Shown here piece after piece: positions 18,539-23,975 of a stretch of DNA of 64,000 nt. The DNA is from Bacteroidota bacterium. Its GTDB lineage: Bacteria; Bacteroidota; Ignavibacteria; UBA10030; UBA8401. The translations under genes and the position numbers were made by a program. The first letter of the stretch is position 1; every line of letters starts with the position of its first letter. The stretch lies in the NCBI GenBank assembly GCA_021796215.1, contig JAJYOK010000004.1, positions 30,217 to 94,216 on the forward strand. The letters are read 5' to 3'. Below the pieces are notes generated by a model. That model worked only from the letters and a program-made list of their open reading frames with translations. It had not been told where the DNA came from and searched no databases.

Positions 18539-18572
18539 TCAAAAAAATCCCGCTGTGTGAAGCGGGATTTTG
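18539..18572 (+). terminator. Rho-independent terminator, A-run/T-run flanked (potentially bidirectional)
   Basis: AAAAAAATCCCGCtgtgtgaaGCGGGATTTTGATTCTTT: a 7-bp GC-rich stem followed by a U-run. Confidence 0.6.
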
Positions 18573-18612: not shown

Positions 18613-18687
18613 GGTGGCCATAGTTCAGTTGGTTAGAATGCCAGGTTGTGGCCCTGGAGGTCGTGGGTTCAAGTCCCACTGGCCACC
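18613..18687 (+). tRNA. tRNA-His (anticodon GTG) with encoded G-1
   Basis: Cloverleaf read by eye. The 8-bp acceptor stem pairs G(-1)GTGGCCA with TGGCCAC-C. The D arm is GTTC/GAAT, the anticodon stem CCAGG/CCTGG with loop TTGTGGC (GTG), the T arm GTGGG-TTCAAGT-CCCAC. The 3' CCA is not encoded (CAA follows). Confidence 0.8.
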
Positions 18688-18776
18688 CAAGATACATTAA
18701 GAAGTAAAATGAAAAATTGAAAGGGTCCATAAAGTTTCAAACCCTTTTTACAATTTTTACATTTTCATTTACTAAA

Positions 18777-18849
18777 GTCCCCATCGTCTAGAGGCCTAGG
18801 ACCGGAGCTTTTCAAGCTTCTAACACGAGTTCGAATCTCGTTGGGGACA
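18777..18849 (+). tRNA. tRNA-Glu (anticodon TTC)
   Basis: GTCCCCATCGTCTAGAGGCCTAGGAC... closely matches bacterial tRNA-Glu. The anticodon stem is GGAGC/GCTTC with loop TTTTCAA (TTC). The T arm is ACGAG-TTCGAAT-CTCGT and the acceptor GTCCCCA/TGGGGAC. CCA is not encoded. Confidence 0.85.
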
Positions 18850-18951
18850 CAAACTTAGGTGGTCATCCTAACTAATCGAATTTAAGTGTTCCTCATTTCT
18901 TAAAACTTTCGTCTCAAACTCCGCACGCACTATACCCCTATTACATTCCAT

Positions 18952-20892
18952 TCAACATAATACTTCAAATACAACGATCGGTTTTTCCAAACCTTTGACA
19001 TGAATTGGCTCAAGTTTCTTCGTACGGACAAAGTCTTTGACAAGGAGATACGTCGACTCTGAAATCAGTATTCCCCCGACTGGGGCGTTGGATTCTAGCC
19101 GTTGCGCAAGATTCACATCGGATCCAAGAACGGTGTACTCCATTCTTTGTGTCGAACCTAAGTCACCGACGACTACATAGCCTGTGTTTATTCCGATTCG
19201 AATACGCAGTGGTAATCGTCCGGCGGGTTCCCACTTTGCCCGCAGTTCCGCGCACTTACGTTGCATATCAATTGCAGCCTTGACGCATCGCAGTGCATGA
19301 TCCGACTGAGGCTCTGGTGCGCCGTAAAATACCATCAACCCGTCGCCGATAAATTTATCCACCGTTCCTCCATATTTGAACACTATCTCCGTCATTACGC
19401 CGAAATATTCATTCAATGTTGCGCTAATTTCTTCCGGTGACTTTGTCGAAGAATATGTTGTGAAGCTCTTAATATCGCTGAACATGACGGTTACTTCTTG
19501 CTTATGCGGTTTTGTACTAAGCGTATTCGGATTATCGATCATTTGTTTCACGACAGACGGAGGAAAATATGTCTCAAACTTGGAACGAAGCTTTTCTTTC
19601 TCCTTTTCCTCTGTGATATACCGTGACGCTACAATGGCTGTCACGGCAAAACCGCCTAACATCAACGGACGAACGATCTCGACGATCACCCCCATGTAGA
19701 TAAATAAAAGACTCGCCGTCACCAGGTATATAAAAACAAGCATGACCGATGCAGTCGTAAATTTTACCGAAGAATATTGCATGCTAAATATCGCTATACA
19801 GGTTGCTATGCATATCTCGATTAACGTCATGATAAATTCCGGCACTGATTGCAGAAATTGTCGTGTGAGAATGGTATTTAACACGTTCGAGTGAAGACCA
19901 ACAAGAGGAAAATTATTTTCAAAAGGCGTTGGCCCTGTATCAGAAATACCCGTCGAAACATCTCCCACAAGACCGATGGAACCAGCATATTCATCTTTAT
20001 AGGCTGCAATTTCCTCTCTGTCCTGAGCCACATCTAATAACTGTATGAATCCCACATGACGCATTGCCCCCCAACCGCCGATCCAGTTAATGAGCATATT
20101 TCCATTTTCATCAACGGGTATACTAACGTCTATTTTTTTTCCCGCTTGCATGATGGCATCATGTAAAGTTATCTGCCTTTTAGTGTCAATGCTGATTTTA
20201 TCTGGAGAGACTTTCCAGTAATCGCAAACGAGACGCATTATCATGCTTGGATAATAATCGCCTTTGTATCGAATAAGAAGGGGAACACGTCGATAGACCC
20301 CATCGATATCCGGCCGGACGCTAATAAAGCCGACGCCGCGCGACGCTTTCACAAGATCAGGCCAAGAAAGCAGAGTTGTTCCTGCAAAATAGAAATTATT
20401 CTCCGCGTTTGCTCGAAGCCTCCATGAAGTAGAGTCAAGAAAACTGATTGCCTGTTTTGATTTTGCGAACGGCTTACCGCGAGAATTCTCAAGGCTGAAC
20501 GCCACCGGTAAGTACACTCGATTTGCCTCCCGAACCGAGGCAACCATCAAGCTGTCGTCAACCATGTTGACTTTTTGGGCAAAGAGAATGTCGAATGCTA
20601 TAGCTGAAAATTCCATTTTCGAAAGCACACTTACTACTTGCGCATAATAACGGCGGGGGAAATAATAGCCAAGGCTCTCAATGGTGGAATTGGCAATATC
20701 AATATGAACAATTGAAGAATCGTATGTAGGCGGGTTCACAACGCTACGGATCAAAAATAATCTATCAACAGCTTGAAGGTTCCACGATTCGAAAACACCG
20801 GGGAGAATAAAAAAGAGGGTGCGTATTAGTAAAAAAGAGACAGCCGTTATGAAAGCGGCGCTCTTCAATCTTTGTTTTTTATTTATGGTCAA
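18952..20892 (-). CDS. CHASE2-domain sensor fused to class III adenylate/guanylate cyclase
   Basis: 646 aa. An N-terminal TM helix is followed by a ~300-aa extracytoplasmic region with CHASE2-like features, then 3 TM helices, then a cyclase catalytic domain with the motifs VTVMFSDIKSFT, KFIGDGLMVFYGAP and RIGINTGYVVVGDLGS. Confidence 0.8.
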   Translation of the reverse strand: MTINKKQRLKSAAFITAVSFLLIRTLFFILPGVFESWNLQAVDRLFLIRSVVNPPTYDSSIVHIDIANSTIESLGYYFPRRYYAQVVSVLSKMEFSAIAFDILFAQKVNMVDDSLMVASVREANRVYLPVAFSLENSRGKPFAKSKQAISFLDSTSWRLRANAENNFYFAGTTLLSWPDLVKASRGVGFISVRPDIDGVYRRVPLLIRYKGDYYPSMIMRLVCDYWKVSPDKISIDTKRQITLHDAIMQAGKKIDVSIPVDENGNMLINWIGGWGAMRHVGFIQLLDVAQDREEIAAYKDEYAGSIGLVGDVSTGISDTGPTPFENNFPLVGLHSNVLNTILTRQFLQSVPEFIMTLIEICIATCIAIFSMQYSSVKFTTASVMLVFIYLVTASLLFIYMGVIVEIVRPLMLGGFAVTAIVASRYITEEKEKEKLRSKFETYFPPSVVKQMIDNPNTLSTKPHKQEVTVMFSDIKSFTTYSSTKSPEEISATLNEYFGVMTEIVFKYGGTVDKFIGDGLMVFYGAPEPQSDHALRCVKAAIDMQRKCAELRAKWEPAGRLPLRIRIGINTGYVVVGDLGSTQRMEYTVLGSDVNLAQRLESNAPVGGILISESTYLLVKDFVRTKKLEPIHVKGLEKPIVVFEVLC

Positions 20893-21586
20893 TCGTGATA
20901 GTTTTGCTATAAAAATTGACGGCGGAGATTTCTGTGGCGAGCGTTGCGATGTCGAGGCGTCTCGGATGCATCGTGTCGGTCAGTGTGCCGCGAACATTGC
21001 CCGCAATCACTACCGGTCGCTCAGCAACAGTGGAGAATGTTCTGAACTGCTTCTTCAAATCTTGAATTTCTTTAATGACAACATCCCCGGCTTTTACCTT
21101 CTGGCTATTCTCTGCATGTATGAAATCCTTCAGTTTGTGTTCAAGTGCGATTAAACGTGTAGGAGACGCGAGAATGTAAAATGTTTCTTCTCCGGTAATG
21201 GTATCCAGAGTAAACCAAGCCCGGCCCTTTGGGATATAGTAATTCTCATCAACTGTGAGACCGCTGTCGAACATCTCTAACGAATAGGGAAATACTAAGT
21301 TGAGATCAGTGTTCGAGCTTTTGTGAATAATGTAGACAAACGTTTTCTGTATGACATACACAAACAATTTAATCTCGTCGCCGCTCTTGAGCAAAGTGTC
21401 GCGCGTAACAGCCGAAACACTCTTTTCACCTTGGGCACCGGACCGTGCAGCAAATACCCATTTAAACTTGATGTTTGCCTGGTTCGTCGAATCCTGTGCC
21501 GCACAAAGGGAGAACATGCAAATCACTGCACACGCCGCCCCAATGAATACGCTGACCTTGCGAAATGTCATAGTTCTTCCTTTCAT
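20879..21586 (-). CDS. Secreted DUF4384-like protein
   Basis: 235 aa with a signal peptide (MTFRKVSVFIGAACAVICMFSLCAAQ) and a beta-rich body. It overlaps the cyclase gene by 14 nt and lies 13 nt after the caspase gene. Assignment to DUF4384 rests on size and context recall and needs a profile search. Confidence 0.4.
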   Translation of the reverse strand: MKGRTMTFRKVSVFIGAACAVICMFSLCAAQDSTNQANIKFKWVFAARSGAQGEKSVSAVTRDTLLKSGDEIKLFVYVIQKTFVYIIHKSSNTDLNLVFPYSLEMFDSGLTVDENYYIPKGRAWFTLDTITGEETFYILASPTRLIALEHKLKDFIHAENSQKVKAGDVVIKEIQDLKKQFRTFSTVAERPVVIAGNVRGTLTDTMHPRRLDIATLATEISAVNFYSKTITIDHK

Positions 21587-21599
21587 TCGGGAGGAGTGA

Positions 21600-23975
21600 T
21601 CAGTGCGCTACTAGAGATATTGTCATATCTTTGTCGTAGTTCCCTTGGTTTCTGGTTGGATGCTGGTTTCCGTTCGTTTCTCGTTTCACTTTCTCTTCTA
21701 CATAATCCATTAGTTCTCCAATGGTTACAGTGTAGTCGTTATTGATATCAGCTGCGCCTTTCATCCCTTCTAGCAAAAAATAAGTGAACACACCATGTCC
21801 ATATTTCTCTAATTCCTGCGACACCTCACCTGCCTGGCTTGCTGTAAAGACGATCGTCCCTTCTTTGGCTTTAGAAAGATCAGAAAGATACTGGTTGATG
21901 AGATTTGTCTCGGACAACGACATTCCCCGCGTTGCAAGATCAGAGCTGATACCTCCGCTGTGACACGCATCGGAAAAAACTACAACACGCTTTGAAGGGA
22001 TATAACGAGTGAGTGCAGTGCTCACATCCCACATCGGGAATGCTGTTGTCTCAAGTGAATTAGGATCAGTGTCATAGGCGAGCAGGTAATTGTTGTTGGT
22101 ATTTGCAGGTTCAGATGCACCGTGCCCAGCAAAGTAAATGATCACGAGGTCATTTTCTATCGTTTGACGGAGAAAATTATAGAGCGCCTCCTTGATATTC
22201 CGGAGCGTTGCATCTTTGTTGAGCAAGATTTGCATGTGTGCCGATTCGAATCCTCCACCCGCAGGAGTTTTCAGGAAATCAGCAAATTCCTTAGCATCAC
22301 GATCAGCAAATTTAAGATTTTTAATTTGCGGATTTTGATACTCAGAAATTCCAACAACTACAGCCCACTGCTCCGGCTGGTTCGACGTACGCCTTACAAC
22401 ATCCGGATTTGGTGCAACCGATGCATTCAAGGTACGGCGGGTAATGTCAAATGATTTGGTGATCTTTTCTCCGTTTTTTGCAGACACAGTCAATACCAGT
22501 TGATTAAAGCCCGCGGAAAGAAAAATCTTTTCTTTGCTTTCAGCACCGATTATTCCGCGAACGGAATTTTCTTTATTTATTATTTCAACCGTATTGAGAG
22601 TGACGATATACCTCACATAATCAAACCAGACTCTGAAATCCAAATCGGTGCTTACTTGGTCGGTTTCGAAGACCTCTTTCGGTGAAAGTATTTCAAGCGC
22701 GGCGTCTTTCGAAAAACGTTGAATTTGAATATGGCTGACAGCCGTGTTTCCGCGTTTGTCGGTAGCGGTAACAATGATATTATTCATTCCAATAGTCGGG
22801 AGCTTTACCGTTGCAGAAAACCGTTTCGATTTCAGTTTTCCTGTTGCCCCTGCATCAATCAGTATGAACTTGTCGTTGCCAATCGTTGCCTCCTTCACGT
22901 CGTTTTCATCCGATGCAATACACGCAACATCAATTTGAGGTGCATAAATCTTGAAGACCTCGTTCTCTTTGGTACGAGGGTGCTCGACAACAACTTGAGG
23001 TGGAATCGTATCAGGCTTTTCCGAGAGCACTCGATATGTCTTTACGGCACCATGTACGGTGGTTGCTACCAATACCGGCGACACGGGCGAAAATGCAACA
23101 AGATTAAAAGAATCTGCTGAGTCAGAAATCGTTGTTGCCAGCGTTCTCGTTTTCAGATTCCAACATTGAATAACATTGCTTGCCGTTGCAAGCCACAAAT
23201 TATCGGCGCTATACGAAAGGGAGCTTACAATCCCCGACCGTGACTTCAAATATTGAAGCGGCGTGTAATTTGGAATCCCCCACATGCGAACCGTAGAATC
23301 CGCAAATGCAGCAGCCAAAAATTTTCCGTCCGGACTAAAGCGCAATGTGTTCATTTGCACGAGCGATGAAGTCGAGAACTTTTTTGATACTGTCAAAGTG
23401 GCAATATCTAGGATTTGTATATATCCATCACTTGTCCCTGAAGCAGCATATTTTCCATCAGGCGTAAAGGCGAGAGCCAAAACTTCACCGTCACTTTTCG
23501 GAAATGAACCAATCGCGTTTCCACCTTGCCAGAGTTTTGTTTCGTGGTCCGATCCTCCTGAAATCATTTTTCCGGACATACTGACATCGATAGCCCTCAC
23601 TCCTAACGCTGCAACATGAGCTTCTATCTCCTCTACCTGCGAGGTGTCGGGAATCCCCCAAATCATTATCTTACCATTGGCAGTGCTGGCAATGAGAGAT
23701 GTTCCGCTCGGAGCGAACGCAAGTCCAAATATCCCGCCGCTTTTTGTAGCGAGAGAATATCTTTCGCTGAGTGTGAACGGATCGACAACTTTAATTGTCT
23801 TGCCAGTTCCACTCAGGGCTATGAAGTTCCCCTTAGGGCTAAAGCTAACGGCGTAAAAAGGATATTGTTGAAGCACCGCTTTGCCCACTGGTTCCACATA
23901 AATTTCTTGGGCAAAGATTGAGAACGGAAAGACCAAAAAGAGCAGGTTGCCTATCAAAGACTTGCTAGACCTCAT
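21600..23975 (-). CDS. Secreted WD40-repeat / caspase-like (peptidase C14) fusion protein
   Basis: 791 aa with an N-terminal Sec signal (MRSSKSLIGNLLFLVFPFSIFAQE). A WD40-like propeller region is followed by a C-terminal C14 domain. The His block is ...LVIIYFAGHGAS... and the Cys block is ...VVVFSDACHSGGIS... (caspase catalytic dyad). Confidence 0.8.
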   Translation of the reverse strand: MRSSKSLIGNLLFLVFPFSIFAQEIYVEPVGKAVLQQYPFYAVSFSPKGNFIALSGTGKTIKVVDPFTLSERYSLATKSGGIFGLAFAPSGTSLIASTANGKIMIWGIPDTSQVEEIEAHVAALGVRAIDVSMSGKMISGGSDHETKLWQGGNAIGSFPKSDGEVLALAFTPDGKYAASGTSDGYIQILDIATLTVSKKFSTSSLVQMNTLRFSPDGKFLAAAFADSTVRMWGIPNYTPLQYLKSRSGIVSSLSYSADNLWLATASNVIQCWNLKTRTLATTISDSADSFNLVAFSPVSPVLVATTVHGAVKTYRVLSEKPDTIPPQVVVEHPRTKENEVFKIYAPQIDVACIASDENDVKEATIGNDKFILIDAGATGKLKSKRFSATVKLPTIGMNNIIVTATDKRGNTAVSHIQIQRFSKDAALEILSPKEVFETDQVSTDLDFRVWFDYVRYIVTLNTVEIINKENSVRGIIGAESKEKIFLSAGFNQLVLTVSAKNGEKITKSFDITRRTLNASVAPNPDVVRRTSNQPEQWAVVVGISEYQNPQIKNLKFADRDAKEFADFLKTPAGGGFESAHMQILLNKDATLRNIKEALYNFLRQTIENDLVIIYFAGHGASEPANTNNNYLLAYDTDPNSLETTAFPMWDVSTALTRYIPSKRVVVFSDACHSGGISSDLATRGMSLSETNLINQYLSDLSKAKEGTIVFTASQAGEVSQELEKYGHGVFTYFLLEGMKGAADINNDYTVTIGELMDYVEEKVKRETNGNQHPTRNQGNYDKDMTISLVAH

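Follow-up and report, generated by a model that had tools for sequence, protein, structure and literature searches.

The extracytoplasmic sensor domain CHASE2 is widespread in cyclases, histidine kinases, diguanylate cyclases and Ser/Thr kinases, and its ligands are still called unknown in recent papers, while the numerous bacterial caspase homologues are mostly without known substrate or role. The two families meet in the 64,000-nucleotide stretch of DNA analysed here (hereafter the window), which belongs to contig JAJYOK010000004.1 of a Bacteroidota bacterium (GenBank assembly GCA_021796215.1, positions 30,217 to 94,216). Three consecutive genes on its minus strand encode a caspase protein predicted to be secreted (g1), a DUF4384 protein (g2) and a CHASE2 cyclase (g3). 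We argue that the three products work together and consider it plausible, with somewhat less than an even chance, that they form an extracytoplasmic proteolytic relay feeding a receptor that produces cyclic AMP (cAMP), a mechanism that we infer from comparison of the genes and of their relatives.

Several described systems share part of this composition. The CHASE2 cyclases CyaD1, CyaD2 and CyaK of S. meliloti resemble g3 in their succession of a transmembrane segment (TM), CHASE2, further TMs and a class III cyclase, and the extracellular signal for them is “of protein nature” and is passed on by the envelope protein NsrA (PMC13001267); unlike g3, they have no described caspase or DUF4384 partner (PMC13001267). 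They are about 25-28% identical to g3, and the alphaproteobacterial CHASE2 cyclases inspected have a FecR-domain gene upstream, not g2. Two of these cyclases are plasmid-borne, in Ruegeria (L082, 3924-7040) and Shinella (L083, 2284-7043), with the FecR-domain gene immediately upstream, and the Shinella pair lies in an NHLP bacteriocin export cluster beside a C39 peptidase gene. The Burkholderia “BiofilmReg” operon, composed of a response regulator, a LysM/FecR protein and a CHASE2 histidine kinase, also places a secreted partner gene just before the CHASE2 receptor, but its output is a histidine kinase, its partner a FecR/LysM protein and it includes no protease (PMC5192318). Homology of g2 with the FecR-domain partners of other CHASE2 receptors was rejected (hhalign probability 0.1%), the analogy being one of position only. 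For one Nostoc genome, the literature mentions a CHASE2 gene adjacent to genes for WD40 and DUF928 proteins.

Caspase and CHASE2 domains are directly linked in fusion proteins, namely a Trichodesmium metacaspase (PMC3501461) and the EACC2-caspase-CHASE2 proteins (PMC8195603), the existence of which independently supports a functional connection between both domains. In these fusions the caspase is cytoplasmic and represents the output of CHASE2, whereas in the present locus it would be secreted, on the CHASE2 side of the membrane, as a candidate input to a receptor with cAMP as output. The Craspase of type III-E CRISPR systems provides another comparison, as a caspase-superfamily protease with a repeat-domain sensor (TPR-CHAT Csx29) that cuts a partner protein, Csx30, and thereby releases a signal (bioRxiv 10.1101/2022.08.17.504292). 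Frequent fusions of DUF4384 with protease domains are reported, and some Csx30 proteins, substrates of Csx29, end in a DUF4384 domain (bioRxiv 10.1101/2022.08.17.504292); g2 is compared with Csx30 here through this domain. Unlike the g1-g3 products, Craspase is cytoplasmic and RNA-guided, and its output is sigma-factor control. Finally, orthocaspases and metacaspases carrying an FGE-sulfatase domain (PMC3501461; Microcystis MaOC4, PMC5756287) have the architecture of the caspase found in the Desulfobacterota and Spirochaetota loci described below, and differ from g1 of the window, with its N-terminal WD40 propeller and C-terminal caspase; no published link of such proteins to CHASE2 cyclases was found in the searchable literature. 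Each component family is already known, as are caspase-CHASE2 fusions with a cytoplasmic caspase and FecR/LysM partner genes before CHASE2 receptors. Full-text literature searches, including CHASE2 papers since 2021, returned no description of a module combining a secreted caspase, a DUF4384 protein and a CHASE2 cyclase, most subscription journals lying outside their coverage, so that a prior description is possible.

The association of the three genes extends far beyond the window. A profile built from 25 CHASE2-cyclase orthologues, run on one genome per GTDB species, recovered 80 loci, which were extracted with up to 8 kb of flank per side and annotated by tblastn, clustering of open reading frames (ORFs), purpose-built hidden Markov models and Pfam. 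Wherever the cyclase was at least 37% identical to g3 and upstream DNA was present, a g2-family gene ended at the cyclase start (61/61 loci); a strict positional filter kept 56 of these pairs and missed L006, L032, L040, L050 and L055, each of which has a g2-family match. Only two of the 13 more distant CHASE2 cyclases had a g2-like neighbour; upstream of others lie genes for a FecR-domain protein (L075), an M48 peptidase (L079) or FGE-sulfatase proteins with lipoprotein-like N-termini (L060). A caspase gene of the signal-peptide type was present in 49 of the 53 informative loci, with none nearby in L013, L015, L048 and L052. The loci are distributed among Ignavibacteriota/Bacteroidota, Desulfobacterota, Spirochaetota and Lentisphaerota, and the accessory domain of the caspase changes with the lineage (WD40, FGE-sulfatase, TPR with Ig-like, or Sel1). 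Ignavibacteriota/Bacteroidota loci encode a WD40/Ig/caspase protein of about 800 aa, as in the window, and Syntrophobacteraceae and other Desulfobacterota a caspase/FGE-sulfatase protein of about 570 aa, while within Desulfobacteraceae one locus has a TPR/Ig/caspase protein and another a Sel1/caspase protein. The gene order also varies: the caspase gene lies upstream of the g2-g3 pair in most loci, three genes downstream of the cyclase in two Spirochaetota loci (L050 and L080, with caspase/FGE-sulfatase), and directly downstream of the cyclase in convergent orientation in the Lentisphaerota locus L049.

Because the genes stay linked in at least four phyla although their order, their orientation and the accessory domain vary, a functional link between the caspase, the DUF4384 protein and the CHASE2 cyclase is well founded, and the initial annotation, which had made its proposal dependent on conservation of the three-gene arrangement in related genomes, is upheld on this point. 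A chance juxtaposition of three genes with no common function is effectively refuted by the census (61/61 and 49/53, across phyla, with a conserved overlapping start), and its probability is negligible.

Additional genes occur within some of these loci. An NADPH-dependent FMN reductase gene of about 190 aa lies between the caspase-FGE-sulfatase and DUF4384 genes in Syntrophobacteraceae (L016, 2128-2715; also L021, L022, L027, L042 and L066-L068). In L050 (9908-14543) and L080 (10098-15272), two large ORFs stand between the cyclase gene and the caspase-FGE-sulfatase gene further downstream; those of L050 (762 and 775 aa) gave no match in Pfam, and the L080 counterparts (806 and 917 aa) belong to the same ORF families. 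Downstream of the cyclase gene in the Desulfobacteraceae locus L044 (1609-5487), an autotransporter beta-barrel is encoded and, after it, a Sel1-repeat caspase whose N-terminus is lipoprotein-like, the beta-barrel recalling the outer-membrane NsrA needed by the S. meliloti CHASE2 cyclases. In the Treponema locus L060 (1214-7927), three consecutive lipoprotein-like genes stand directly upstream of the CHASE2 cyclase, one with fn3 and a Listeria-Bacteroides repeat and two with Big_2 and FGE-sulfatase domains, with neither a caspase domain nor a DUF4384 gene.

At the gene junctions, the initial description of three coupled minus-strand genes with a 13-nt gap and a 14-nt overlap is borne out by the ORF coordinates. 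The g1 stop and the g2 start are 13 nt apart, or 28 nt if g2 begins at its second ATG, which is the start in P0121, a 230-aa database twin. The g3 gene starts with a TTG inside the end of g2, and this start is backed by full-length orthologues of 646-651 aa. Of the 39 loci, from several phyla, in which both gene ends could be placed, 34 have the same 14-nt overlap and 32 of these 34 begin the cyclase with TTG, a conservation that speaks for a coupling of g2 and g3 synthesis. A practical consequence concerns annotation: with its conserved TTG located inside the upstream gene, the cyclase has been called from 51 codons downstream, and shortened to 595 aa, in at least one automatic gene call (P0001; also L081). 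A promoter scan gave matches no more numerous than the shuffled expectation, with a sigma-70 consensus that may not apply to this lineage.

All domains initially assigned to the three proteins (WD40, peptidase C14, DUF4384, CHASE2 and class III cyclase) score above the curated Pfam thresholds, and the catalytic motifs of both enzymes are intact, as had been stated. In g3, CHASE2 (PF05226) reaches 138.9 bits for a cutoff of 26.3 and Guanylate_cyc 119.4 bits over aa 462-637. The protein has all six canonical residues (D473, D517, K513, T587, N594 and R598), none of which varies among 25 orthologues; they comprise the two metal-binding Asp, the transition-state Asn and Arg and the Lys and Thr/Ser pair that define subclass IIIb. 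The best solved relative is the catalytic domain of P. aeruginosa CyaB (3R5G; E=5e-46, about 49% identity), which has the same Lys/Thr substrate pair, metal and transition-state residues, the likeness being limited to this domain since the solved chain has 198 residues. The membrane module of CyaB is presumably MASE2 and not CHASE2. Cya2 (2W01), which we take to be a guanylate cyclase, carries Glu/Gly at the positions of the Lys/Thr pair. Lys513/Thr587 together with the relationship to CyaB make cAMP rather than cGMP the most likely product, and of the two nucleotides left open initially only the first is favoured. Kyte-Doolittle hydropathy, a heuristic, predicts a basic N-terminus, a first TM at about aa 11-36, an external CHASE2 domain, three TMs within aa 349-422 and a cytoplasmic cyclase. 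The CHASE2 domain was modelled with confidence (pLDDT 80), and no solved structure resembles it.

For the secretion and topology of the three proteins, the criteria were hydropathy, the -3/-1 rule and conservation. The N-terminus of g1 resembles a signal peptide, MRSSKSLIGNLLFLVFPFSIFA followed by a predicted cut before QE, as does that of g2, ending in MFSLCAA before a cut at QD, and signal-like N-termini were found in all caspase, g2 and TPR orthologues examined. The topology first proposed, with g1, g2 and CHASE2 outside the cytoplasm and the cyclase inside, has held according to these heuristic indications. The accompanying view that a secreted bacterial caspase is unusual was overstated, since a 2012 survey counted 98 of 671 prokaryotic metacaspases as “membrane”, mostly because of an N-terminal helix that is perhaps a signal peptide, and 30 more as “extracellular” (PMC3501461).

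The caspase domain of g1 (Peptidase_C14, PF00656) reaches 84.4 bits for a cutoff of 21.4, and its HG and DxCHSGG blocks match those of Arabidopsis metacaspase-4 (6W8S), with which it aligns. Its catalytic dyad consists of His618, in YFAGHGAS, and Cys671, in DACHSGG; both residues are invariant in 54 of 54 aligned caspase domains from the window and related loci, and an Asp two residues before the Cys (Asp669 in g1) is found in every sequence of the same alignment. In Arg/Lys-specific metacaspases and in the paracaspase, an Asp at this position lines the S1 pocket. This residue points to a g1 caspase that is probably Arg/Lys-specific. Between the propeller and the caspase, aa 321-525 gave weak Pfam matches (Glucodextran_B, E=1e-4; Cadherin-like, E=0.01) and retain 26-48% identity among orthologues; a Glucodextran_B domain also precedes the caspase in locus L014. 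A protein identical to g1 (P0241) is present in public assemblies. The full-length homology search was flooded by WD40 proteins and gave only three true orthologues besides the identical protein; orthologues were consequently drawn from the genomic loci, where about 27 proteins of about 800 aa occupy the same position in Ignavibacteriota/Bacteroidota.

Matches of the g3 cyclase domain to the Pycsar PycC models (E=1.5e-32) and of g1 to the PADLOC “caspase” model bring the module close to defence systems, in line with the abortive-infection and kin-recognition options of the initial annotation. An anti-phage, abortive-infection or kin-recognition system would have an envelope event trigger the caspase and the cyclic nucleotide activate a toxic effector, and the frequency of FGE-sulfatase domains in conflict systems (PMC7159879) could be read in the same sense. 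The NCBIfam family nearest to the g1 caspase, NF047832 (caspase, EACC1-associated type), adds to this resemblance, but the score of 112.6 bits lies below its curated cutoff of 140 and g1 was not assigned to it; no EACC1 family appeared among the domain matches of the module proteins or their immediate neighbours, no dedicated EACC1 search having been made. Assignment to Pycsar was also rejected: the PycC matches are at the level of the cyclase fold, but no TM or TIR effector gene is adjacent and the substrate residues are of the adenylate-cyclase type, with the canonical Lys/Thr pair and about 49% identity to CyaB. No nuclease gene adjoins the module either, and g2 and the neighbouring TPR protein have no PADLOC matches. 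The flanks consist of housekeeping genes, KsgA, PAP2 phosphatase and MurB in the window and, varying among the sampled related loci, trigger factor, squalene/phytoene synthases and PPDK, with no compositional or att signature. Moreover, the predicted location of the protease is extracytoplasmic, and phage replication is not sensed there. Given this lack of contextual support, we consider a defence function quite improbable.

The g2 protein has a DUF4384 domain (PF14326) at aa 67-143, with 42.5 bits for a cutoff of 27, and belongs to a family of stand-alone proteins of about 215-275 aa, comprising 239 clusters at 50% identity with E<=1e-30; the longest among the best 150 matches does not exceed 293 aa. 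In its AlphaFold2 model (pLDDT 86), a signal helix is followed by an Ig-like beta-sandwich at aa 39-141 and a helical hairpin at aa 146-182, and then by a disordered stretch that precedes a C-terminal beta-hairpin, so that the subfamily adds the helical hairpin, a conserved loop and the C-terminal hairpin to DUF4384. The disordered stretch, where pLDDT falls below 50 at aa 185-187 and 190-203, is the sole one of this confident model and contains the most conserved motif of the family, AERPxxI(A/G)GNVRG. E189, P191, I194, G196, N197 and R199 are invariant in a 48-sequence alignment; among 33 cross-phylum sequences P191, I194 and G196 never vary, and the conservation of A188, E189 and R199 is 90% or higher. 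A conserved motif on a loop modelled as exposed and flexible is as expected for a docking or cleavage site, for which it is a candidate. Compared with sequences of the PDB, the g2 profile gave a single spurious coiled-coil match (E=0.004).

An Ig-like beta-sandwich with a conserved exposed loop, encoded between a protease and a cyclase gene, could also be a dedicated inhibitor or chaperone of the secreted protease, the loop occupying the active site and the cyclase being an unrelated neighbour or a sensor of free inhibitor. Ig-like chagasin and the staphostatins are encoded beside their proteases. The frequent fusion of DUF4384 to proteases would suit this role as well, but g2 tracks the cyclase rather than the caspase, keeping its overlap with g3 when the caspase is absent or moved, and no known inhibitor family was matched in sequence or fold above generic Ig-like scores. 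An inhibitor is for these reasons improbable.

The proteolytic relay that we favour would operate as follows. The g3 product would be a homodimeric class IIIb adenylate cyclase with an activity set by its periplasmic CHASE2 domain. The g2 product, its synthesis presumably kept in a constant ratio to that of g3 by the overlapping TTG start, would serve CHASE2 in the periplasm as a co-receptor or regulatory subunit; this role is suggested by the adjacency and coupling of g2 and g3, which form the tightest pair of the module, and by the position of g2, the one held by FecR-domain proteins before other CHASE2 receptors. Such secreted partners, encoded just upstream of a CHASE2 receptor (FecR in L075, Ruegeria and Shinella; LysM/FecR before the CHASE2 histidine kinase), support the partner role of g2. 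The g1 product would be a secreted, catalytically competent caspase-family protease, the variable head of which (WD40; FGE-sulfatase/C-type-lectin, TPR or Sel1) would bind a cue or a scaffold, its constant and intact catalytic domain with swapped binding heads fitting the pattern of a sensor-transducer. The FGE-sulfatase domain in particular is a ligand binder of C-type-lectin fold diversified by retroelements (PMC7159879; PMC7517822). Engagement of the accessory domain of g1 would lead the caspase to cut g2, most likely in the disordered loop AERPxxIxGNVR/G, where the near-invariant R199 at the loop end becomes a candidate P1 residue given the Arg/Lys specificity expected from the Asp(-2); the interaction of g2 with CHASE2 would then change and cAMP synthesis would switch. 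In Ignavibacteriota/Bacteroidota, a secreted TPR protein encoded divergently from g1 probably joins as a scaffold or substrate adaptor. DUF4384-protease fusions, and the DUF4384 domain of Csx30 as a precedent for a Csx29 substrate, support such a relay. Inference extends to the contact between g2 and CHASE2, to the cleavage of g2 and where it occurs, to the way in which cyclase activity would shift and to what the cue is.

Several observations weigh against this relay. The g2-g3 pair, adjoining in 61/61 loci with an overlapping start, is tighter than its link to the caspase, which is absent from four informative loci, lies at a variable distance and is separated from g2 by the FMN-reductase gene in several Syntrophobacteraceae loci. 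L013 and L052, with no caspase nearby, still keep the g2 loop motif, which may serve CHASE2 binding rather than cleavage, unless the caspase is encoded elsewhere in those genomes. No gene of a cAMP effector was found linked to the module among the flanking genes of the window and of the sampled related loci. The signal peptides of the module proteins are predicted from hydropathy and conservation, and a single motif residue underlies the proposed S1 specificity. The first two of these observations would be explained if g2 were a ligand-binding or accessory subunit of CHASE2, in the manner of FecR by its position, and the caspase a co-regulated envelope protease with other substrates, acting in maturation, turnover or surface remodelling, so that the cyclase output would not be set by g2 cleavage. 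The persistence of caspase co-localisation through inversion and relocation in four phyla does not agree well with such a loose association, and unrelated heads on one protease fold with an intact dyad are hard to explain unless the protease acts in the same pathway; we regard this alternative as unlikely without being remote.

Returning to the proteolytic relay, the module is best described as an extracytoplasmic receptor cyclase with accessory proteins, with a real chance of being mechanistically new as a periplasmic caspase relay. That it constitutes the first identified input mechanism of CHASE2, with a secreted caspase using interchangeable heads to cut a DUF4384 co-receptor and CHASE2 reading this cleavage into cAMP, is a tentative proposal, possible rather than probable. 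If true, it would represent a bacterial extracytoplasmic caspase cascade leading to a second messenger, with a logic similar to that of protease-activated receptors or Spaetzle-Toll. The module offers a concrete hypothesis for three things at once, the input of CHASE2, the substrate of an orthocaspase and the function of DUF4384, testable through defined residues (C671 of g1, R199 of g2, D473 and D517 of g3). The positions of the module and of its neighbours are gathered in Table 1.

Table 1. Features of the caspase/DUF4384/CHASE2-cyclase locus and adjacent genes, in positions of the 64,000-nt window
Feature	Position	Strand	Basis and remarks
g1, predicted secreted WD40 / two Ig-like spacers / caspase protein	21600..23975	-	791-aa ORF; Pfam WD40 and Peptidase_C14
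g1 predicted signal peptide, aa 1-22, predicted cleavage IFA/QE	23910..23975	-	Hydropathy and -3/-1 rule; like N-termini in caspases of all four architectures
g1 WD40 beta-propeller, aa ~41-316	23028..23855	-	Pfam WD40 E=4e-28; many beta-propeller families
g1 middle region, aa 321-525, probably two Ig-like beta-sandwich domains	22401..23015	-	Weak Pfam matches, orthologue conservation
g1 caspase domain, aa 536-778	21642..22370	-	Pfam Peptidase_C14; His618 at nt 22122-22124, Cys671 at nt 21963-21965
g2, predicted secreted DUF4384-family protein	20879..21586	-	235-aa ORF; signal peptide, Ig-like sandwich, helical hairpin, conserved loop, C-terminal beta-hairpin
g2 motif AERPVVIAGNVRG, aa 188-200, candidate cleavage or docking loop	20987..21025	-	Alignments and modelled disorder
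g2 stop / g3 TTG start overlap, 14 nt, ATTGACCATAAATAA	20879..20892	-	g2 stop TAA; overlap read in the window sequence
g3, CHASE2 / 3-TM / class IIIb adenylate cyclase	18952..20892	-	646 aa; TTG start inside g2 end
g3 CHASE2 extracytoplasmic domain, aa 26-367	19792..20817	-	Pfam PF05226
g3 cyclase catalytic domain, aa 462-637	18982..19509	-	D473, D517 metal; K513/T587 adenine; N594, R598
Divergent TPR protein, predicted secreted, 640 aa	24178..26100	+	TPR repeats in C-terminal third; signal-like N-terminus
tRNA-His	18614..18688	+	Just beyond g3 3' end; neighbour, outside module
tRNA-Glu	18777..18850	+	Just beyond g3 3' end; neighbour, outside module

The TPR protein has no Pfam match in aa 1-441. 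Its orthologues (family F5) are encoded divergently from the caspase gene in 14 Ignavibacteriota/Bacteroidota loci, and because they accompany the module there despite different outer flanks, this protein is probably a fourth, lineage-specific member of the module.

On the other side, the tRNA pair beyond g3 had initially been taken as a common location for accessory genes, which is not borne out by the comparison. A His or Glu tRNA stands beside the module in none of 34 related loci, no GC shift is seen (module GC 0.44-0.46, the same as the flanks), and no att-like tRNA-derived repeat bracketing the module was found. With housekeeping genes on its flanks, a tRNA-integrated genomic island was rejected and the tRNA pair is considered incidental. 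Terminator-like hairpins lie at 18544-18571, after the PAP2 gene, and at 18720-18747, between the two tRNA genes; on the minus strand the second would be the first terminator-like site met by g3 transcripts, after antisense passage through tRNA-Glu. A different tRNA gene, tRNA-Leu(TAG), is located 1.7-2.7 kb into the Ignavibacteriales-type loci L007, L008, L009, L028 and L040, just beyond the divergent TPR gene in all of them except L009, which is without an adjacent TPR-family gene; this placement suggests local synteny more than an integration site.

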